Counted from the stretch's first letter, positions 28,729-38,468 are shown. The stretch: 64,000 nucleotides of DNA from Capsulimonadaceae bacterium (GCA_965215505.1 OZ244065.1:1792001-1856000), one strand, 5' to 3'. A program made the numbers and translations. The notes: generated by a model from the letters alone, not told the origin.

Positions 28729-29760
28729 TCAGTGCCCCAGCAGTGAGGACGTCCCGCCCTCGGGGGAGATGACGAACGGCTTCGGGACGCCGTAGCGCCC
28801 GCACAGGCTGCCGAGTTCGCCGTCCGCCGCCGAGCCGTCGGTGTTGACCTGGCCCTGCACCTGGGCGACGGCGCTCAGGTCGGGCAGGCCGTTCGAGTCG
28901 TGGTTGAGCAGGGCCACCTGCATCTTGGAAATGATCGTCGTGTAGTCGCCCAGGAACGTCAGATAGCGCCCGGCCAGCGGCGCGCAGGCGGGAGGGGGGG
29001 GCGTGGCCCGGAAGTCGCGGACCAGGCCCTGCCACTTCAGGGCGTACTGGGTGTAGCCCTGGCTGATGCGCTGGGTGTTCTGCTTGGCCGCCGCCTCCTT
29101 GGCTGCCTGATCCTTCGCCTCGTTCTCGCCCTCCGGGTCGTTGGAGATGTCCGGCATCCCCCCGCCCCCCATCCCGCCCATGCTTTCCGCAAGCCCCAGC
29201 ATCGCCGTAGCGCCCGCCGTGTCGTTGTTCATGGCGACCCGCCGCTGCTCGATCTGCTGCAAAAAGTTAAGATAGGCGGCGACATCGGGCGGCAGGGCCG
29301 GGCCGGGCGCGGTGGGGGCGTTTGTCAGGCCGGGACTCCGGACGGCCGGCGCGGTCGGAGCGTTGGTCAAGGCGGGCGCGGCGTTAGGCGGGGCGGCAGG
29401 GGCATTGGTGAGCGCGGGGGCGGCGGTCGGCGGGCTGACCGGGGCATTCGTCAAGGCGGGTGCCGGCACGGGCGGCGGTGCGGCAGAAGCAAGCATGTTA
29501 GACTGCTGATGCAGCCGGGCGGCGAGTAGGGCGACGCCGAGGGCCAGGACGAGCAGGGCGGCGAGCATACCTGGGACCAGCAGCCTGCGCGAGCCGGAGG
29601 CGGCGGCCTCGACCCCGCTGGCTGCGCCGAGCGGCGGGCGCGGGACGCGGGCCGGCAGGACGGTCGGCGCGGACCCGTCCAGGCGGGCGGCGCAGTTGGG
29701 GCAGAATCGGGCGGTCGAGGGGATCTCCTGGCCACATTCGGGGCAAAATCGGGCTGCCAT
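28729..29760 (-). CDS. Zinc-ribbon domain membrane protein with PALTNAP repeats
   Basis: GGAGG RBS, FCPECG...FCPNC, TM segment, 4x (A/G)LTNAP, helical C-terminus. Confidence 0.8.
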   Translation of the reverse strand: MAARFCPECGQEIPSTARFCPNCAARLDGSAPTVLPARVPRPPLGAASGVEAAASGSRRLLVPGMLAALLVLALGVALLAARLHQQSNMLASAAPPPVPAPALTNAPVSPPTAAPALTNAPAAPPNAAPALTNAPTAPAVRSPGLTNAPTAPGPALPPDVAAYLNFLQQIEQRRVAMNNDTAGATAMLGLAESMGGMGGGGMPDISNDPEGENEAKDQAAKEAAAKQNTQRISQGYTQYALKWQGLVRDFRATPPPPACAPLAGRYLTFLGDYTTIISKMQVALLNHDSNGLPDLSAVAQVQGQVNTDGSAADGELGSLCGRYGVPKPFVISPEGGTSSLLGH

Positions 29761-29865
29761 GTTCACCTCCCAAGGCGTACATCGGGGCTTACAAATGCTG
29801 TTGTCACTATACCGTGCTTTCTCCCCTTCCGTCAAGCGGCGCGCAGGAGATTCTTTCCGCGACCG

Positions 29866-29908
29866 TAGACGAAAAGAGCTATAAACGGGTATAATAGAAC
29901 AAGTGTTC
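29866..29908 (+). promoter_or_regulatory. Sigma70 promoter with Gram-positive-type LexA (SOS/Cheo) box
   Basis: TAGACG 29866-29871, 18-bp spacer, TATAAT 29890-29895, GAAC-AAGT-GTTC 29897-29908. Confidence 0.8.
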
Positions 29909-29973
29909 GTCAGACGTTCTGCCGGCCTTCAGACGACGTTTCTCCCGCTTCGGACCAACTAGGAACCCCGCCG

Positions 29974-30498
29974 ATGACTACCCGAGTGACCAACCGAGAC
30001 ATGGCCGCCACGCTGTTCAATATCGCCACCCTGCTGCGCGACCGCTCGGACAGCCCGTACCGGATTCGCGCTTACGAGCGCGGTGCGCGCGCCCTCCTGG
30101 CCCGCCGCGACCAGATTGCCGACGCTTTGCGCGAGGCCGACAAGACCCTGCCGCACCGCAAGGGGGTTTTGGGTGAGCGCATCCAGCGCCGCCTGAAGGA
30201 GCTGGCCGAGACGGGCCGCGTGGAGACGCTGGACTCCCTCTGCGCCGACCTGCCCCGGCATATCGGGGCCTTGATGGAGGCCCCCGGCGTCGGCCCGCGC
30301 CTGGCCGAGCGGCTGCACGAGAGCCTGGGGGTGGAGACGGCGGACGACTTGGCCCGCGCCGCCCGCTCGGGCCGCGCCCGCCAGGTGTGGGGCGTCGGCC
30401 CCAAGCGCGAGGCGCAGTGGTCTCAGCCGTCCCTGTTCGGGGAAGGGGAGCTGTTCCCGGACGTCGCCGAAGAGACGAAGCGGCGGATGGCGGCCTAA
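29974..30498 (+). CDS. Stand-alone PolX N-terminal helix-hairpin-helix protein (no polymerase palm or PHP domain)
   Basis: TNRDMA..L..IA.LL....PYRIRAYERGA, ELAETG, PGVGPR.A..L...LGVET.DDL..A, GVGPK.E. Confidence 0.85.
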   Translation: MTTRVTNRDMAATLFNIATLLRDRSDSPYRIRAYERGARALLARRDQIADALREADKTLPHRKGVLGERIQRRLKELAETGRVETLDSLCADLPRHIGALMEAPGVGPRLAERLHESLGVETADDLARAARSGRARQVWGVGPKREAQWSQPSLFGEGELFPDVAEETKRRMAA

Positions 30499-30502
30499 CC
30501 TC

Positions 30503-31819
30503 ATGCAAGAAGAAATCGAACTCGACCTCTTCGCCGCCGCCCTGGATACCGGAGCGGCGGACGACGCCGACGGCCCGGACGGCGACGAGCCGCCGGATTG
30601 GCTGGAGGCGGTCGCCGCTGATTATGCCCTGCCGTTCACACTCCCTACCCTGCCGCTCGCCCCGCGCCCGTACCAGAAGGATGCCCTGACGGCATGGGGT
30701 CGGGCATTGGGGCGGGGCGTGGTGGTCTTGCCGACGGGGGCGGGAAAAACGGTCGTCGCCCTGATGACCATGGAGGCGATGCAGGTGACGACTCTCGTTG
30801 TCGTCCCGACGATTGACCTCATGCACCAGTGGCACGACGGGATCAAAGAGAAGTTCGGGCTGGACGAGACGCAGGTCGGCATGGTCGGCGGCGGGTTCAA
30901 GAACGCCCGGCCCGTGACGGTCATCACTTACGACTCGGCGGCCATGCCTAAGCGGGACCTGTCCGACTACGGGCTGCTGATCTTCGATGAAGCCCACCAC
31001 CTGCCCTCGGCCTCCTACCGGACCATCGCGACGCGCGCCGATGCGCCATTCCGTTTGGGGCTGTCGGCGACATTAGAGCGGTCCGACGGGCGGCATGACG
31101 ACATCGCGCGGCTTGTCGGCCCGACGGTCTTTGAACGGCAGCCGCAGACGCTGGCCCGCGACAAGCACATCGCGGACTACAAAGTCGAGCGCGTGTCCAT
31201 TGACCTCACCGACGACGAGCAGGCGCGCTACGACCAGCTCACGTCCGAGTTCTCCTGGTACATGGCTTCCAACCGGACCAAGCTGATGATGACCGGGGCG
31301 GCGAACCTGTTTGAAGCCCTGATCCGCAGCGCGGGTTATGACCCCGCCGCCCGTCAGGCCCTGCGATCCCACCGGGAAGCGCGGATGCTGGCGATGAACG
31401 CCGAGCGCAAGATCCAGGCCGTCGAGGCGCTGCTGACGCGGCACCGGGATGACAAAGTGATCGTGTTCTCCGAGTGGAACGTCATCGTCAATGACCTGTC
31501 CCGCCGCCTCTGCCTGCCCGCGATCACCTACCGCACCCACGCCGACGAGCGGCGCGATATCTTAGACAAGTTCCGGGCGCAGAAGTATTCCAAGCTGGTC
31601 ACGGGCCGCGTCTTGAACGAAGGCGTGGACGTGCCCGACGCCAATGTCGCCATCGTCGTCTCCGGGTCGTCCACGACGCGCGAGTATATCCAGCGGCTGG
31701 GGAGGGTCCTGCGGCCGAAGCCGGGCCACGCGCACCTGTATGAGCTGGTGTCGCGCGGAACGAGCGAGGTCAAGACGGCCCGCAAGCGCAAGCCGGTGGA
31801 GAAGGCCGAGACAACTTAG
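30503..31819 (+). CDS. XPB/Rad25-like superfamily 2 DNA helicase
   Basis: RPYQ, LPTGAGKT, DEAHH, LGLSAT.ER.DG, LNEGVDVPDA, EYIQRLGRVLR. Confidence 0.92.
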   Translation: MQEEIELDLFAAALDTGAADDADGPDGDEPPDWLEAVAADYALPFTLPTLPLAPRPYQKDALTAWGRALGRGVVVLPTGAGKTVVALMTMEAMQVTTLVVVPTIDLMHQWHDGIKEKFGLDETQVGMVGGGFKNARPVTVITYDSAAMPKRDLSDYGLLIFDEAHHLPSASYRTIATRADAPFRLGLSATLERSDGRHDDIARLVGPTVFERQPQTLARDKHIADYKVERVSIDLTDDEQARYDQLTSEFSWYMASNRTKLMMTGAANLFEALIRSAGYDPAARQALRSHREARMLAMNAERKIQAVEALLTRHRDDKVIVFSEWNVIVNDLSRRLCLPAITYRTHADERRDILDKFRAQKYSKLVTGRVLNEGVDVPDANVAIVVSGSSTTREYIQRLGRVLRPKPGHAHLYELVSRGTSEVKTARKRKPVEKAETT

Positions 31820-31887
31820 GGGCGCGATTTATCGTGCCCTTTCTTCGGACGAAAGCATTCAGAGGGCGCGGCAAGCAGCGCCCCTAC
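31817..31887. repeat. GTAG-tagged REP doublet; family copies also near 6597, 9824, 25045/25124, 32839, 33547, 40327, 53766/53838
   Basis: (G)TAGGGGCG...CGCCC hairpins, often in inverted pairs. Confidence 0.8.
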
Positions 31888-31934
31888 AAGATGGCCCGCG
31901 TTCGACCACAAGTATCCCAGGAGCATCACACACC

Positions 31935-33428
31935 ATGGCCTTCCGCCAAGAGGATTTCAAGAAAACCAGCCGCAAAGGGACCGGGGACGCGCCCGCGTCC
32001 GTCTACCCGCACCAACTCAAGGACAAGAAGACGGTCGCGCGGCTGGAGATCGCCATCCGCACCTTCGACGGCGCGGTGGGAAAACGGCGGAAAGACATGG
32101 ACGCGCAGGCGATGACCGACTTCTTCGGCGACCCGCGCCTAGCGCGCGGCATCGTCGCCTGCTTGGGCCAGTTCTACCGCTACGAGACGCTGGACTTCAC
32201 CCAGGCCGTCGGGCGAGAGGCGGCGGGCCGCCTGCGGGCGGCGGGTCTGAACCGGCCCGTGGAGGTTCGCGCGGACACTTACGCCTGGGTTAATGAACAC
32301 GCGGGCGGCTTCCTCACCGAAGCGGGCCGGGCGGAGGCATATGAGCAGCTAGGCGCGCGCTTCTGTCTGTCCGCCCATCAGTGGGACACCTTGCTGCACG
32401 GGGACGCCGAGGACAATCAGGTCCTCGCCCGGCTGGGTGCCGTTCCTACGCCCGGCGACATCATCGCCCTGTACAACTTTCACTCGCTGGACACCGTCCT
32501 GCGCCGGGCCACGGCGGTCGCGCTGCATGGCCTGGCCCTGCCCGCCGGGGAGGCGGGCGACGTGCGCGCGCTGGCGAAATCGCTCGGGGCGCGCGCCGTC
32601 GTGTCCGGCGACGGCGGGACGGTGACGCTCGCCGAGGCCCCCTCCGAGGACGCCTCGGGCGCGGCTTCGCTGTTCCCCCGGCGGGCGGGCCGCCTGGCCC
32701 GGCTGGTCCTGCACCTGACCGCTGCCTACGCCACGCGGGCGACGACCGGCTGGGTGGACGCCAAGATCGGCGCGCGCTGCTTCCGTTTAGCTCTAGGGAC
32801 GGACGCCCTGCGCGCCCTGGGGATGCGTCCCGAACCCCGTAGGGGCGAACCTTGTGTTCGCCCTTCCCCCGCCTTCAAGCGGCGGTTTGAGGCGGGGCTT
32901 GCGCTCCACAAGGACCTCTTGAAGCGGCGGGCGAAGGGGGAGGCGAACGGCTGGCGCATCAAGCGGCTGCCTGACGCCTTGGTGACGGCGACGGGCGTCC
33001 TGCTGCCGGATTTCCTGCTGACGCGGGGCGGCAAGGCAGCCTGCCTGCTGCTCGGGGCGGACGCGCCCGGTACAGTGGCCGAGGAGACGGCGACCGTACT
33101 GACGTTCCCGCTGGGCCGCAAGCCTCTGGACGCCTGCGACGTGCTGGCGCGGGTGGAGGCGGCGACGAACAGCCTGTTCGCTCTGGCCCCCGCTGCCCCC
33201 CCCGCCGTCCCCGCCGACGTGCGCGCGCTCTGTGACCGTGCCGCCCGCGAGGGGCTGGTGCGCGCCGCCGACGCCCGCCGGACCCTGCACCTCCTGGACG
33301 AGTCCCCGCTGATCGCCTGGGTGCGTCAGTGCGAGGACCCGCGCGTCCGGTATGTGCCGGGCGTCGGCCTGTGTTCGCGCGAGATGGTGGCAGCAATTCA
33401 GGGGGATGGGCAATTGGCACTGGCGTGA
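31935..33428 (+). CDS. DUF790 / Bax1-like protein
   Basis: DPRLARG, LHGDAEDNQVL, IIALYN...DTVL..A, GW.I.R.P..L.....V.LPDF; located directly downstream of the XPB-like helicase. Confidence 0.75.
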   Translation: MAFRQEDFKKTSRKGTGDAPASVYPHQLKDKKTVARLEIAIRTFDGAVGKRRKDMDAQAMTDFFGDPRLARGIVACLGQFYRYETLDFTQAVGREAAGRLRAAGLNRPVEVRADTYAWVNEHAGGFLTEAGRAEAYEQLGARFCLSAHQWDTLLHGDAEDNQVLARLGAVPTPGDIIALYNFHSLDTVLRRATAVALHGLALPAGEAGDVRALAKSLGARAVVSGDGGTVTLAEAPSEDASGAASLFPRRAGRLARLVLHLTAAYATRATTGWVDAKIGARCFRLALGTDALRALGMRPEPRRGEPCVRPSPAFKRRFEAGLALHKDLLKRRAKGEANGWRIKRLPDALVTATGVLLPDFLLTRGGKAACLLLGADAPGTVAEETATVLTFPLGRKPLDACDVLARVEAATNSLFALAPAAPPAVPADVRALCDRAAREGLVRAADARRTLHLLDESPLIAWVRQCEDPRVRYVPGVGLCSREMVAAIQGDGQLALA

Positions 33429-33628
33429 AGAACGCCCCGGCCCTGAAGGGCCGGGCGACTGTAGATGTGAGAGTCGCTCCGCGACTGAGGATTGGGAACT
33501 TAGGGACGCGATCCGTCGCGCCCTCTCAGGGCCGGGCTCCCTTCCTGTAGGGGCGCTGCTTGCTGCGCCCTCCTCCCTCATTTCCCCAAGTTCCCTGATC
33601 CCTTCCCTGGCATGATCTATGCACTAAT

Positions 33629-34539
33629 AGACCTCTTGCGTAAGTCGGGTATCCTGCGTGTATGTTTTACGCCGATGCCCGTTTGTTGAAGCCGCCCGTG
33701 TTCAAGCGACTGACCGGCGTCCCGCCGGACACGTTCCAAGCCATGAGGGCGGCCCTCGCTGAGCATCTGCCCACCGGCGGACGCCGGGCCAGGCACTGCC
33801 GGGCCAGGCACTGCCGGGCCAGGCACTGCCGGGCCAGGCACTGCCGGGAAGACCGGCTCCTGATGACCTTGATGTACTGGCGCGAGTACCGCACTTACGC
33901 CCATATCGCCCACACCTACGGCCTGAGCGAGTCCGCCGTCTGCCGCACCGTCCACGCCGTCGAGAACGCCCTGCTCCGCTCCGGCGCGTTCACCCTGCCC
34001 GGCAGGAAAGCCCTGACCCGGAGCGACATCCAGTTCGAGGTCGTCGTCGTGGATGCCACCGAGTGCCCGGTGGAGCGTCCGAAAAAAAGCAGAGACGCTC
34101 CTACAGCGGCAAGAAGGAGCGGCACACTCAGAAAGCGCAGGTCGTCGCGGACCCGAGGACCGGGCGCATCCTAGCCACGGCGTTCAGCGCGGGCAGGCTG
34201 CACGACTTCAAGCTGTTCCCGCGCAGCCGCGTGGCGCTCCACCGGAAGACCGCGTGCCTGGCAGACAGCGGCTATCTGGGGCTGAAGAAGCGCCACGCCA
34301 ACAGCCGCCTGCCGGCCAAGAAGAGCAAACTGCACCCGCTGACGCGGGAGCAGAAGCGAGACAACCGGCAACTCTCGCGGGAACGGTTCGTGATCGAGCA
34401 TATCATCCGCAGCGTCAAGATCTTCCGCATCCTGGCGGAGCGCTACCGTAACCGGCGCAAGCGCTTTGGCCTGCGCTTCAACCTGATTGCCGCCCTCTAC
34501 AACCTGGGGCGGCCGACCTGAGACTTACGCAAGAGGTCT
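33629..34539 (+). mobile_element. IS5-family insertion sequence (ISL2/IS702-like), ~911 bp
   Basis: Perfect 18-bp terminal inverted repeats agacctcttgcgtaagtc / gacttacgcaagaggtct, flanked by AAT on both sides. Confidence 0.9.
33662..34521 (+). CDS. IS5-family transposase split by a -1 frameshift at an A7 run (34082-34088)
   Basis: ORF1 HTH (FKRLTGV, LLMTLMYWREY) and VVDATE..ERPKK; ORF2 YSGKK.RHT.K.Q, HDF, ADSGY.G, R..IEH. Confidence 0.88.
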
Positions 34540-35011: not shown

Positions 35012-38000
35012 TCAGTCCGCCAGGGCGACGGCGTTCTGGGCTGCGAAGGGACCGTAGCCGGGCGTCGAGGCGATGGAGCCATCGCTATTAATCTTCCAGA
35101 CCGACATGACGCCGGTGGTGTGCGTCCAGAGGGCGCGCGCCTTGTTGTCGGGGCCGACGGCCAGTCCGGTGCAGGTCCAGCCCTGCCCAGGGTCGTAGCC
35201 CGGCGTCGAGGCGAACGAGCCGTCCGCGTTGATGGTCCAGACCGACATCGCGCCGCTCGCGTTCACCCACAGGGCGCGCGCCTTGTTGTCGGGGCCGACG
35301 GCCAGTCCGGTACAGGTCCAGCCCTGCCCAGGGTCGTAGCCCGGCGTCGAGGCGAACGAGCCGTCCGCGTTGATGGTCCAGACCGACATCGCGCCGCTCG
35401 CGTTCACCCACAGGGCGCGCGCCTTGTTGTCGGGGCCGACGGCCAGTCCGGTGCAGGTCCAGCCCTGCCCAGGGTCGTAGCCCGGCGTCGAGGCGAACGA
35501 GCCGTCCGCGTTGATGGTCCAGACCGACATCGCGCCGCTCGCGTTCACCCACAGGGCGCGCGTCTTGCCGTCCGGGCCGACGGCCAGTCCGGTGCAGGTC
35601 CAGCCCTGCCCAGGGTCGTAGCCCGGCGTCGAGGCGAACGAGCCGTCCGCGTTCACGGTCCAGACCGACATGAAGCCATCGGGCCGCGTCCACAGGACGC
35701 GCTCCTTGTTGTCGGGGCCGATGGCGACCGCACCGGCCGTCCAGCCCGAGATCGGGCCGAAGTCGCGGGCCGTGTCGAGCGGGTCAGCATCGCCCAGCCC
35801 CCAGAGGGAGGCCAGGCCGTCGCCCCAGGACCAGAGGGCGCGCGTCCGACCGTCCGGGCCGACCGCGATGGCGCGGGCGGTGCGGGCGACCGCCTGCTGG
35901 CCGGCGACGTTGTAGCCGGGGGTGGAGGCGATGGTACCGTCGGCGCTCACGGTCCAGACGGACATCGTGCCGTCGCCGCACGCCCACAGGACGCGGTCCT
36001 TACCGTCCGCGGCAACGGCGAGGGACTTGGCGGTCCATCCGGCGATGGGGCCGTAGACGTGGCAGGAGGCGGCGGGGTCCGCGTCGGCGAGGTCCCACAG
36101 GGAGGCGCATCCGCCCGCCGCCGTCCACAGGACGCGGGCGGAGTTGTCCGGGCCGACGGTGACCGACTTGGCGGCCCATCCGGGGAACGGCCCGTAGCCG
36201 GGGGTGGAAGTGAATGAGCCGTCTGCGGCGACAGTCCAGACGGACATGACGCCGCTGGTGTGCGTCCACAGGAGGCGGACGCTGCCGTCCGCGCCGACGG
36301 CGAGGGACTTGGCGGTCCATCCGGCGATGGGGCCGTAGACGTGGCAGGAGGCGGCGGGGTCCGCGTCGGCGAGGTCCCACAGGGAGGCGCATCCGCCCGC
36401 CGCCGTCCACAGGACATGGGCGGCCCCGTCGGGTCCGGCCGCGACGCCGGTGGCGATCCATCCGGGGTACGGGCCGTAGTCGGGGGAAGCGGTATGGCCA
36501 CCCGAGGCGTCCACGGTCCAGACGGACATCCTGCCGTCGGTGTGGTCCCAGAGCAGGAACACGGAGCCGTTCGGCCCGTCCGCGACCGACCGGGCGGTCA
36601 TTCCGGGGACCGGGGCGAAGGTATGAGCGGCGGCGGCGGGATCAGCGGCGGCGAGGTTCCAGAGCGAGACCGAGCCGTCCACGCCGCGCCACAGGACGTG
36701 CGTCTGGGCCGGCGCGGTGTCGGGCGTGGTCGTGGGCACCGTCTGCGTAATGCCCGTCGTGCCTGAACCTGGTGTCGTGCCTGAACCTGGTGTCGTGCCT
36801 GAACCTGGTGTCGTGCCTGAACCTGGTGTCGTGTTCGTCCCTGTAGTCGTCCCCGGATCGGTGGTCGTCGTGCCGGTCGTCGTGCTGGGCGGCGTGCTGG
36901 GCGGCGTGACAGGCGTTGTTGGAGGGACGGGCGGCGTCGGAGGGACGGGCGGCGTCGGAGCGGGCGGGGCGAGGGCGAAGAGAGCGCCGGTGTCATTCAC
37001 GCCGCCGTCGTAGGCCGTCCCATACCACAGGCCGTTCGGTGCGGCCGTCAGGCCCGCGCTGGGGCTGCCGCCGTCGGCCCCCCCGGTGAAACTGTACAGG
37101 GTGGTGAAGCCCGTGCCGTCGGTGTTGAGCGCGAACGCGGTGCCGTAATCGTCCGTGCCGCCGCTAAACGTGGTGCCGTAGAGCATGCCGTCCGTACCGA
37201 GCGCGACCGGGGCATAGGGTGCGCCGCCGTCCGCGCCGCCCGTGAAGGTGTAGAGCGTCACAAAGCCGGTGCCGTCCGGCCGGACTTTGAAGACGGTGCC
37301 GTATTCGGCGGAAAAGGGCGCGTCGCTGGTGGTCCCGTAGAGGAAGCCGTCACCGCCGTCCGTCAGCCCCGCCTGCGGGCAGCCGCCGTCGGCGGCCCCG
37401 GTGAAGCTGTAAAGGACGGCGTATCCCGTCCCGTCGGTGTGGAGGGTGAAGACGCTCCCCGCCGCATTGGCCCCGCCCGCCTCGGTCGTACCGTAGAGGA
37501 CGCCGCCCGCGCCGACCAGGAGCGGCGCGGCGGGCATGTCGCCGGTGGTGAAGGGGTACAGGTCGGCGAACCCGGTGCCGTCCGGCTTGACCTTGAAGAT
37601 CATTCCGAGTCCGGTGCCGCCGCCGCTGGCGGTCCCGTAGAGGAAGCCGTCGCCGCCGTCCACCAGCCCCGCCTGCGGGTATCCGTGGCTGTAGTAGTTG
37701 TTGGAGAAGGCGTACAGGACGACGAACCCCGTCCCGTCGGTGTTGACACGCCAGGCGGTCCCGCCGCCGTTCGGCCCGTCGCTGCTGGCCGTGCCGTAGA
37801 GGGTGTTCCCTTCCAGCAGCAGCGTCCCCGCCGGCGCGGAGCCGTCGGCGGTGAGGCTGAAGGTGTGCAGGGCGGTGAACCCGGTGCCATTGGGGCGGAC
37901 CTTGAAGACGGTCCCCGCGCCCGAAGCGCCACCCGCCGTCGTGGTCCCGTATAGGAAGCCGTCGGGGCCGAGCGTCAGGGCGGCGGACGGGCCGCCCCCG

Positions 38001-38227
38001 TCGGGGCTATCATCCAGGGAGTCGGCCTGGCTGAAGGCGTACACGGGCGCCTGGGTGAGTGCCGGGGCGGAGGCCACACCCGTCCGGGCGAGGCCCAGCG
38101 TCATGCCCACTGTCATGCTCAGGGAGACGCCGAGCGTCAGCAGCAGCGACGGGAACGCCCCGGCTCGGCCCTTCAGAGGCCGGGCCTTCAGGGGACGGGA
38201 GGCGCGCGGGTTATCGAATGGGTTCAT
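35012..38227 (-). CDS. Large secreted repeat protein (GloVer-like choice-of-anchor tandem repeats, Thr/Pro linker, C-terminal ~47-aa beta repeats)
   Basis: Signal peptide; ~6x DG.LYGTT..GG....GTVF....DGTGF..LY.F; PGSGTT repeats; repeated LW...G.MSVW....DG....TPGY. Confidence 0.85.
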   Translation of the reverse strand: MNPFDNPRASRPLKARPLKGRAGAFPSLLLTLGVSLSMTVGMTLGLARTGVASAPALTQAPVYAFSQADSLDDSPDGGGPSAALTLGPDGFLYGTTTAGGASGAGTVFKVRPNGTGFTALHTFSLTADGSAPAGTLLLEGNTLYGTASSDGPNGGGTAWRVNTDGTGFVVLYAFSNNYYSHGYPQAGLVDGGDGFLYGTASGGGTGLGMIFKVKPDGTGFADLYPFTTGDMPAAPLLVGAGGVLYGTTEAGGANAAGSVFTLHTDGTGYAVLYSFTGAADGGCPQAGLTDGGDGFLYGTTSDAPFSAEYGTVFKVRPDGTGFVTLYTFTGGADGGAPYAPVALGTDGMLYGTTFSGGTDDYGTAFALNTDGTGFTTLYSFTGGADGGSPSAGLTAAPNGLWYGTAYDGGVNDTGALFALAPPAPTPPVPPTPPVPPTTPVTPPSTPPSTTTGTTTTDPGTTTGTNTTPGSGTTPGSGTTPGSGTTPGSGTTGITQTVPTTTPDTAPAQTHVLWRGVDGSVSLWNLAAADPAAAAHTFAPVPGMTARSVADGPNGSVFLLWDHTDGRMSVWTVDASGGHTASPDYGPYPGWIATGVAAGPDGAAHVLWTAAGGCASLWDLADADPAASCHVYGPIAGWTAKSLAVGADGSVRLLWTHTSGVMSVWTVAADGSFTSTPGYGPFPGWAAKSVTVGPDNSARVLWTAAGGCASLWDLADADPAASCHVYGPIAGWTAKSLAVAADGKDRVLWACGDGTMSVWTVSADGTIASTPGYNVAGQQAVARTARAIAVGPDGRTRALWSWGDGLASLWGLGDADPLDTARDFGPISGWTAGAVAIGPDNKERVLWTRPDGFMSVWTVNADGSFASTPGYDPGQGWTCTGLAVGPDGKTRALWVNASGAMSVWTINADGSFASTPGYDPGQGWTCTGLAVGPDNKARALWVNASGAMSVWTINADGSFASTPGYDPGQGWTCTGLAVGPDNKARALWVNASGAMSVWTINADGSFASTPGYDPGQGWTCTGLAVGPDNKARALWTHTTGVMSVWKINSDGSIASTPGYGPFAAQNAVALAD
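35125..35690. repeat. Four near-identical 141-bp intragenic tandem repeats
   Basis: ccagtccgg anchor at 35161, 35302, 35443, 35584. Confidence 0.92.
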
Positions 38228-38468
38228 AGTGTCCTTCTGGGAGCCGCCGGCGCGGGCCGGGCGGAGGGTCTTGCGAACAGGTATTGCGAACGGGCATTGC
38301 CTGGAGGGGGCCTCGTCGCCTGTCTTCCTTGTCGGCAAAACGCGGCACAAAAAAAGGGGCGCGCGCCTGCGTGCCCCCCTTTGGGGCATATTCCGGCACT
38401 GTTGCGGGGTGTCAGGCTGGTAGTGCTGCGGGGGCGTTCAGGAACCCAGTACTGCCTGATACCAGGGC

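Follow-up and report, generated by a model that had tools for sequence, protein, structure and literature searches.

In a 64,000-nucleotide (nt) stretch of a Capsulimonadaceae genome, we identified three co-directional genes that we favor, with moderate confidence and judging from sequence, as a LexA-repressed SOS operon encoding a remodeled XPB–Bax1 subtype in a bacterium of the phylum Armatimonadota. The genes encode a small helix–hairpin–helix (HhH) protein corresponding to the N-terminal subdomains of the polymerase PolX (mini-PolX), an XPB-type helicase, and a DUF790/Bax1-like protein. The stretch, called the window below, spans bases 1,792,001-1,856,000 of a genome with a G+C content of 66.5% that consists of a single contig of 6.18 Mb. 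Homologs were found in Capsulimonas corticalis, at 59% and 70% identity, and in loci of "Armatimonadales" metagenome-assembled genomes (MAGs). The consensus TATAAT, the GAAC-N4-GTTC palindrome, the three co-directional genes, and the 4-nt gap between the first two, all named in the original prediction, were present at slightly corrected coordinates:

29865-29870, plus strand: conserved GTAGAC over the -35 region (column identity ~90-100% across 21 orthologous promoters)
29866-29871, plus strand: -35-like hexamer TAGACG (promoter scan; 10/12 matches together with the -10 hexamer, spacer 18 nt)
29890-29895, plus strand: -10 hexamer TATAAT, consensus (TATAAT or TACAAT in 21/21 family promoters)
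29897-29908, plus strand: candidate LexA-type operator GAACAAGTGTTC, an exact palindrome, with a single A between it and the -10 hexamer
29974-30498, plus strand: mini-PolX HhH gene, 174 amino acids (aa) (Pfam HHH_8 and HHH_5)
30503-31819, plus strand: XPB-type superfamily 2 helicase gene, 438 aa (Pfam ResIII, ERCC3_RAD25_C, and Helicase_C)
31935-33428, plus strand: DUF790/Bax1-like gene, 497 aa (Pfam DUF790, 59.9 bits; gathering cut-off 28.8)

As GAACAAGTGTTC begins 1 nt past the -10 hexamer, it would cover the expected transcription start. A leader of 65 nt lies between the box and the HhH gene, whose TAA stop is followed after 4 nt (CCTC) by the helicase ATG. The DUF790 frame is open from 31644, and we chose the ATG at 31935, 115 nt past the helicase stop, because of the codon-position G+C and because all relatives begin at MAFR. 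A second box or promoter was looked for in this 115-nt gap and none was seen, and the promoter scan of 29600-33900 returned two promoter-like sites, compared with 0.3 in shuffled sequences.

Both the promoter and the gene order are conserved. The HhH gene was present in 22 of 24 other genomes of the window's family; XPB came next after it in 19 of 20 short family loci, the 20th stopping at a contig edge, and the order HhH, XPB, DUF790 was kept in 8/8 extended loci. All 21 family promoters (the window counted) consist of GTAGAC, 17-18 nt, TATAAT or TACAAT, and a box 1-2 nt further on, the spacing being 2 nt in two of them as judged by eye. Of these boxes, six match exactly, 14 differ at one position, and 1 differs at two; column identity reaches at least ~90% in the half-sites and hexamers, is lower within the N4 spacer, and falls in the flanks. 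To look beyond the family, we ran an XPB alignment against one genome per species and obtained 80 XPB loci. In 13 of them the three genes stood in the order seen in the window, with HhH directly 5' of XPB, three of Armatimonadales type and ten of Chloroflexota type (Chloroflexia, Thermomicrobiales, Ktedonobacterales, Roseiflexaceae, Oscillochloris, or unclassified). Every one of these 13 loci has a box 1-6 nt past a -10-like hexamer (exact in 7, with one mismatch in 6), whereas among the 67 HhH-less loci an exact box within 450 nt upstream was present in one, L072. Likewise, no exact box was found in 13,319 nt of sequence upstream of 19 Chloroflexota XPB loci that fall outside the clade set out below (to 400 nt past the open frame). 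Conservation of the box and synteny across phyla, proposed as checks on the original prediction, thus came out in its favor.

The same box stands at SOS genes of the host. The genome encodes three LexA paralogs and two RecA genes, a set conserved across the genus, and also other S24 proteins:

G000:C1 483472, 4951723, and 1658128: lexA1, lexA2, and lexA3 (loci L001-L003)
G000:C1 1655096 and 3300281: recA1 and recA2 (loci L005 and L006)

The lexA1 promoter has TATAAT followed by tandem CGAACATCTGTTG and CGAACGGATGTGC, an arrangement kept in 5/5 lexA1-type promoters. At recA1, TATATT is followed by tandem CGAACAGATGTTTG and CGAACACGGTTTAG, and at recA2 the promoter reads TACAAT-n3-GTACACACGTTC; these arrangements are kept in the relatives' recA promoters examined. 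The uvrA gene, identified with Pfam, has GAACAGATGTTT 54 nt upstream. The check at lexA and recA that had been suggested was therefore positive for lexA1, recA1, and recA2 and extended to uvrA; lexA, recA, and uvrA are among the usual SOS members. Promoters of the lexA3 type carry another palindrome, CAAACAAAAGTTTG, in 5/5 cases (CAAAC-N4-GTTTG type), and lexA3 itself has direct CTTATTCGC repeats past its -10 hexamer. The lexA2 gene is part of an operon, in which a gene for a small membrane protein precedes it; a box was not seen there. Since its own promoter carries autoregulatory boxes, LexA1 is the likely regulator. Given the box at the host lexA1, recA, and uvrA genes and its retention in 21/21 and 13/13 promoters, LexA-type control of the operon appears probable. 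The available text of one account gives GAAC-N4-GTTC as the LexA motif of Bacillus subtilis, Mycobacterium tuberculosis, and Gram-positive bacteria (PMC3323433).

A position-weight matrix was built from six seed sites. In a genome of this G+C content AT-rich chance matches dominate its output, and we used it only near recognizable genes. High-scoring sites before genes for a TonB receptor, a ParA-like protein, GH127, GH92, and OEP were unrelated to repair and were not counted as regulon members. The gene caller, based on G+C at third codon positions, is crude: it missed the DUF790 gene, serves as a rough guide to what is intergenic, and gives crude gene calls outside the window. Two small open reading frames (ORFs) with no Pfam match lie behind near-consensus boxes and may be small SOS genes: L162 (G000:C1:206124-206384), behind TACAAT-a-GAACATCGGTTT, and L163 (G000:C1:210993-211373), behind TATCAT-acc-GAACTCGGGTGC.

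The helicase is a true XPB relative, as had been proposed: its family profile matches Archaeoglobus fulgidus XPB (AfXPB; 2fwr/6p66) with E 7e-127 over Af residues 90-469. Its recognizable elements are as follows:

30503..30658, plus strand: acidic N-terminal tail, ~residues 1-52, in the place of the damage-recognition domain (DRD)
30518-30538, plus strand: ELDLFAA within the acidic tail
30728-30751, plus strand: motif I, LPTGAGKT
30986-31000, plus strand: DEAHH
31076-31096, plus strand: ERSDGRH (RED region)

Of the RED residues, R193 and D195 are invariant, and the E has not been retained. The N-terminal DRD is lacking, the alignment to AfXPB beginning at Af residue 90, whereas the HhH-less XPBs outside the clade have a DRD-like N-domain (L098 aligns from residue 22). 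The NCBIfam model repair_heli_XPB gives 251.7 bits, below its cut-off of 610, with the best stretch at model positions 183-402. The tail motif takes forms such as DLFAAL and LLDPL in the relatives ([DE]LF/LL-x-A-L). We considered the tail as a general clamp motif and rejected the idea: [QE]L[DSNE][LIM]F occurs in only 27 of 116 homolog tails, mainly in Armatimonadota, and the tail was treated as an acidic amphipathic peptide.

The DUF790 protein is likewise a true relative of Bax1, as originally claimed. Besides the Pfam match given above, its profile matches the solved Bax1 structure 6p66_B with E 3.4e-12, and hhalign aligns it to canonical DUF790 over the full length (probability 100%, E 3.7e-51); the NCBIfam model for endonuclease Bax1 gives 21.2 bits, below its cut-off of 500. 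In A. fulgidus Bax1 (AfBax1), the available text of the structural study lists E275, D305, and E318 as acidic residues of the nuclease domain, and D133, E135, Y155, and N156 as the XPB interface and also a second, N-terminal active site (PMC7293015). Their counterparts in the window are:

32400-32414, plus strand: D157 and E159 (AfBax1 D133 and E135)
32469-32480, plus strand: Y180 and N181 (AfBax1 Y155 and N156)
33000-33014, plus strand: PD, with D359 (AfBax1 D305) retained
33042-33059, plus strand: hydrophobic CLLLGA, where canonical proteins read lEI.GFW

All aligned homologs have D157 and Y180, and nearly all have N181; E159 is present in the window protein. The motif-1 Glu (the E275 equivalent) has no counterpart, and E318, which lies in YIEIAGFW of AfBax1, maps to a hydrophobic residue of CLLLGA. 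In canonical DUF790 proteins D381, E394, G397, and W399 are invariant. Counting proteins with the region covered and setting five truncated rows aside, we found E-x-x-G-[FY]-W in 0 of 20 HhH-linked DUF790 proteins compared with 38 of 39 HhH-less ones, and the exception, L104, lies in the HhH clade. By these alignments, the Bax1-like protein appears to retain the residues of the XPB interface but just one of the three acidic residues of the nuclease domain, and to lack the GFW motif; its gene adjoins XPB in all 8 extended family loci. With the motif and two of these acidic residues lost, it is not safe to infer a helicase–nuclease machine that acts on bubbles. The original prediction of an XPB–Bax1-like machine with an added HhH subunit holds for the families and their order; the DRD and the nuclease motif are gone, and HhH is no more than a putative physical subunit of the helicase.

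The phylogeny of the helicases sets these loci apart. All trees were quick or FastTree trees and unrooted; that of XPB was built with FastTree from helicase cores only (59 rows, midpoint root for drawing). It places the 12 HhH-linked loci that it contains, the window, and the HhH-less L072, L073, and L104 in one clade with support 100, nested among Chloroflexota XPBs and with the Armatimonadota rows inside it. As to the three HhH-less members, the contig of L073 begins at XPB, the XPB gene of L072 is directly preceded by TAAAAT-aa-GAACATAAGTTC, and L104 has GAACGTATGTAC 35 nt before the XPB start. Taken together, the comparisons make it very probable that the unit is a distinct, monophyletic subtype of the XPB–Bax1 system. 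As the HhH-linked loci are kin, the co-occurring losses may reflect one historical remodeling and not repeated co-evolution. Two records in this data set call for comment. L066, in a record titled Janthinobacterium lividum MAG, shares its HhH protein, without any difference, with the Armatimonadota locus L021 and has an XPB that groups with Armatimonadales; its contig is probably mis-binned. In L043 / L014 (G015), XPB matches in three pieces in different frames, indicating frameshifts or assembly errors.

The HhH protein is a truncated PolX. Its residues 7-147 match positions 3-142 of Thermus PolX (3au2; E 1.8e-16; family profile E 1.6e-34) and comprise an 8-kDa-like HhH and a fingers HhH domain, with a third hairpin of GxGxK type (WGVGPK). 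The protein ends ~30 residues past the fingers and has no palm, thumb, or PHP domain, so it would have neither polymerase nor exonuclease activity; the NCBIfam PolX model gives 45.3 bits, below its cut-off of 426, and covers positions 2-139 of 571 only. Two short elements were noted in its tail:

30424-30438, plus strand: QPSLF, residues 151-155, candidate beta-clamp-binding motif in the C-terminal tail
30481-30495, plus strand: RRMAA C-terminus, a possible ssrA-like degradation signal

The beta-clamp-binding consensus is QL[SD]LF or QLxLxL. A motif of the form Q(x)[LPIMV][SDTA]LF, mostly QLSLF, was found in 79 of the 92 homologs that reach 140 aa or more, the Chloroflexota versions reading QLALPA, QLPLPI, QLTLAL, and QLALFS, and Q[LM][SDNT]LF occurs only 4 times in the 4669 crude ORFs of the genome. 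The sole exact QLSLF in this ORF set is C-terminal in a 273-aa metallo-beta-lactamase-fold protein (L176:422-1243; G000:C1:407821-408642), which may be another clamp-binding repair nuclease. An ending in -AA, mostly RMAA or RLAA, was present in 41 of 88 homologs and, speculatively, resembles ssrA-type degradation tags. No full-length PolX above the NCBIfam cut-off was found in the window genome. A second small ORF of ~120 aa, located outside the window (G000:C1:2660708-2660953, minus strand), matches only the PolX 8-kDa part (positions 5-83) and has no LexA-type box nearby.

Several findings weigh against a LexA-controlled three-gene unit, and the first of them concern the box. Exact copies of the 12-mer number 67 in the genome, compared with ~60 expected from base composition; the bare box is not enriched genome-wide. 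With three LexA paralogs and at least two box types, the binder is assigned solely from lexA1 autoregulation. The chance-level count, the paralogs, and the other S24 proteins would fit a palindrome bound by another regulator, or one that is just a conserved initial transcribed sequence, in a unit outside SOS. We consider this explanation improbable. By arithmetic from base composition, a consensus TATAAT with an exact box within 1-2 nt is expected ~0.005 times per genome, and there are only 24 places genome-wide with any -10-like hexamer no more than 12 nt upstream of a box that has at most one mismatch; the placement of the box exceeds chance, though the 12-mer by itself does not. Against a non-SOS palindrome stand the identical box type and placement at lexA1, recA1, recA2, and uvrA and the retention of the box in two phyla that use GAAC-N4-GTTC-like boxes; moreover, where the LexA box type shifts to AAAC-N4-GTTT, the HhH box shifts too.

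The remaining findings of this kind concern the coherence of the gene set. A GC hairpin lies within the 115-nt gap upstream of the DUF790 gene, and the candidate clamp motif of the window protein is QPSLF, not QLSLF. In most relatives a strongly folding gap of ~100-300 nt (~-0.4 to -0.56 kcal per nt) separates HhH from XPB, unlike the gap of just 4 nt in the window, and these structured inserts may attenuate or modulate read-through. No operator-like box was seen in the relatives' gaps; where boxes occur, in two loci, they lie within hairpin repeats. The ~200-300-nt inserts of L009, L010, L013-L015, L017-L020, L023, L024, and L027 have long inverted repeats like repetitive extragenic palindromic (REP) elements or miniature inverted-repeat transposable elements (MITEs).

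HhH genes also exist without the helicase. In a sister family of the same order, short HhH homologs of 38-48% identity stand alone among unrelated neighbors: XPB was absent from 8 short and 5 extended HhH loci, and the DUF790 query found a match in 0 of 16 sister-family genomes compared with 22 of 24 in the window's family. The linkage of HhH to XPB and DUF790 in other genomes, which the original prediction required, was thus borne out in part, the order recurring elsewhere and HhH occurring alone in the sister family, where it would have to work without XPB and the Bax1-like protein. The sister-family HhH genes have GCAAAC-N4-TGTRTG upstream, overlapping TATAAT, which is the box type at the main lexA of those genomes, whose LexA is closest to LexA3 of the window genome. 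That HhH stays behind a LexA-type box despite the other operator type, and with neither XPB nor the Bax1-like protein, argues for LexA control and for an XPB-independent role.

These observations bear on the possibility that HhH is an independent SOS factor binding clamps, gaps, or nicks, such as a replication brake or a base-excision-repair helper, that merely shares the promoter, so that no three-part machine exists. Besides its solitary occurrence behind a LexA-type box and the structured inserts parting it from XPB, this account is favored by the grouping of HhH from the two Armatimonadota families in a single clade (support 99), apart from the Chloroflexota HhH. It also agrees with the many clusters of stand-alone HHH_8+HHH_5 proteins of 155-215 aa in several phyla, which are leads only. 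Among 301 sampled genomes of the phylum, short HhH frames occurred in just these two Armatimonadota families (13/18 and 7/14), the other matches being full-length PolX frames. An independent factor is harder to reconcile with the order HhH, XPB, Bax1-like being kept in two phyla and with the presence of HhH going together with the loss of the DRD and the nuclease motif, though these loci are related and the losses may be one event. A complex prediction for XPB (A1) and HhH (A2) scored 0.00 against a mark of 0.32, with controls not run, and weighs neither way. All in all, we regard an independent HhH as possible but doubtful.

The loss of the nuclease motif in the presence of HhH also allows for a different division of labor, in which HhH is an apurinic/apyrimidinic-site or deoxyribose-phosphate (AP/dRP) lyase making the incision that the Bax1-like protein no longer can, a helicase–lyase replacing the helicase–nuclease. 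The HhH domain is of the PolX 8-kDa lyase type, topoisomerase V HhH repeats are among the profile matches, and a Lys stands where Thermus PolX has the Lys of LAEKI in 19 of 26 alignment rows (read by eye). The position presumably corresponds to the Pol beta lyase residue Lys72. No Lys is invariant in the HhH family, and some relatives have Arg, Thr, Ala, or Val at this position. In the window protein the residue is Arg and not the Lys of Thermus PolX and most family members, a further point against the proposed unit that also makes a lyase role doubtful for this protein. For the HhH members of Lys type such a role is possible; as an account of the unit, the lyase is unlikely.

Finally, the unit could be a damage-induced anti-phage or mobile-element system and have no part in repair. 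The helicase scores against models of PbeA and of a dnd-restriction helicase, an IS5-family transposase fragment lies just downstream, and the XPB tree suggests transfer between phyla. The helicase, however, matches just PbeA and other helicase models, which a shared core of XPB type explains, and neither HhH nor DUF790 has a PADLOC match; no nuclease motif is left for a restriction-like effector, and synteny across the genus covers both the locus and the divergent promoter upstream of it. We therefore consider a defense function very improbable.

Returning to the LexA-repressed operon with a remodeled XPB–Bax1 pair, we can outline how it might work. Upon DNA damage LexA, probably LexA1, would be cleaved and the operon transcribed from the boxed promoter. 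The HhH protein would bind gapped or nicked DNA ends, as the 8-kDa and fingers domains of PolX do, and would dock on a beta clamp left at a gap or stalled fork. There the DRD-less XPB, anchored to the catalytically reduced Bax1-like protein via the conserved interface between ThM/HD2 and the N-terminal domain, would use ATP to translocate on DNA or to open it. HhH might provide in trans, possibly via the acidic XPB tail, the recognition of DNA structure that the DRD provides in cis elsewhere. Any strand cutting would fall to the N-terminal D-x-E site that the Bax1-like protein retains, or to another enzyme. This chain of damage, docking of HhH on the clamp, and XPB action is, as a whole, tentative. 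The specific picture of a damage-induced, beta-clamp-tethered XPB translocase, in which a detachable mini-PolX replaces the DRD and the Bax1 nuclease has become a non-catalytic helper, is possible but doubtful.

Compared with known systems, the unit is apparently an undescribed, remodeled form of the archaeal-type XPB–Bax1 pair. With the archaeal pairs (A. fulgidus 6P66 and S. tokodaii 6P4F, as presented in the available text of PMC7293015) it shares a helicase core, RED region, and ThM/HD2 that align end to end, and a DUF790 partner encoded beside XPB with conserved interface residues. It differs in the missing DRD, in the loss of the E275 and E318 equivalents and of GFW, in the added mini-PolX gene and LexA-type box, and in its bacterial host. 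The canonical bacterial XPB–DUF790 pairs of Ktedonobacteria, Rubrobacteraceae, cyanobacteria, Myxococcota, and others have the two families adjacent in the same order and with full-length homology; unlike the window, they keep the DRD and PD...E-x-x-GFW (38/39), have no HhH gene, and, in the 19 Chloroflexota cases checked, no box. Thermus PolX 3AU2, in the accessible part of its description (PMC3479172), has the same N-terminal 8-kDa and fingers subdomains with both HhH motifs, whereas the window protein lacks palm, thumb, and PHP and adds a QLSLF-type tail; the available text of a 2026 survey of bacterial polymerases gives only the PolX1 and PolX2 architectures, neither of which is the mini-PolX (PMC12926913). 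The operator type and the overlap of box and promoter are as in the GAAC-N4-GTTC regulons of B. subtilis and M. tuberculosis in the available text of PMC3323433; the host of the window differs in its three LexA paralogs, and its cargo of mini-PolX, XPB, and Bax1-like protein is not among the members found in the literature. The available text on M. tuberculosis XPB, from the one paper found in which XPB, Bax1, and LexA occur together, treats the helicase alone, states that no XPB–Bax1-like complex had then been identified in bacteria, and has LexA only in a reference (PMC3353954). A literature search, in which most subscription journals were not covered, turned up no account of such a three-gene unit, of a bacterial XPB under LexA control, or of a mini-PolX with a clamp motif, in line with the original statement that none was known. 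To our knowledge, mini-PolX, XPB, and Bax1-like proteins are not among the known SOS members.

The neighborhood of the operon contains the following genes. Upstream, a divergent gene for a zinc-ribbon membrane protein (window 28729-29835, minus strand) has its own promoter, TTGACG 29835-29830 and TATAGT 29811-29806, and this divergent promoter (TTGACA...TATGAT, on the opposite strand) is likewise conserved beside the HhH promoter in the genus. Directly 3' of the DUF790 gene, at window 33662-34174 (plus strand), lies the IS5-family transposase fragment (HTH_Tnp_4; 170 aa compared with a 285-position model). Farther on, window 35012-38389 (minus strand) encodes a 1125-aa protein that combines seven choice-of-anchor repeats of the GloVer (Gloeo_Verruco) type with a C-terminal domain rich in Trp.

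In eukaryotes XPB serves as the motor of TFIIH, and its archaeal partner Bax1 is the model for the coupling of XPB to incision. The clade described here may be seen as a natural experiment, in which one lineage dropped the DRD and the nuclease site, gained a clamp-motif PolX fragment, and came under a LexA-type box. It makes testable predictions on where XPB acts, at clamp-marked gaps or forks, and when, during SOS. The operon would be a surprising addition to the SOS genes of Chloroflexota and Armatimonadota, and it draws attention to stand-alone mini-PolX proteins as an uncharacterized class. If the proposed mechanism is true, at least two bacterial phyla would have an unrecognized pathway that operates at post-replicative gaps or stalled forks and not at excision-repair bubbles.

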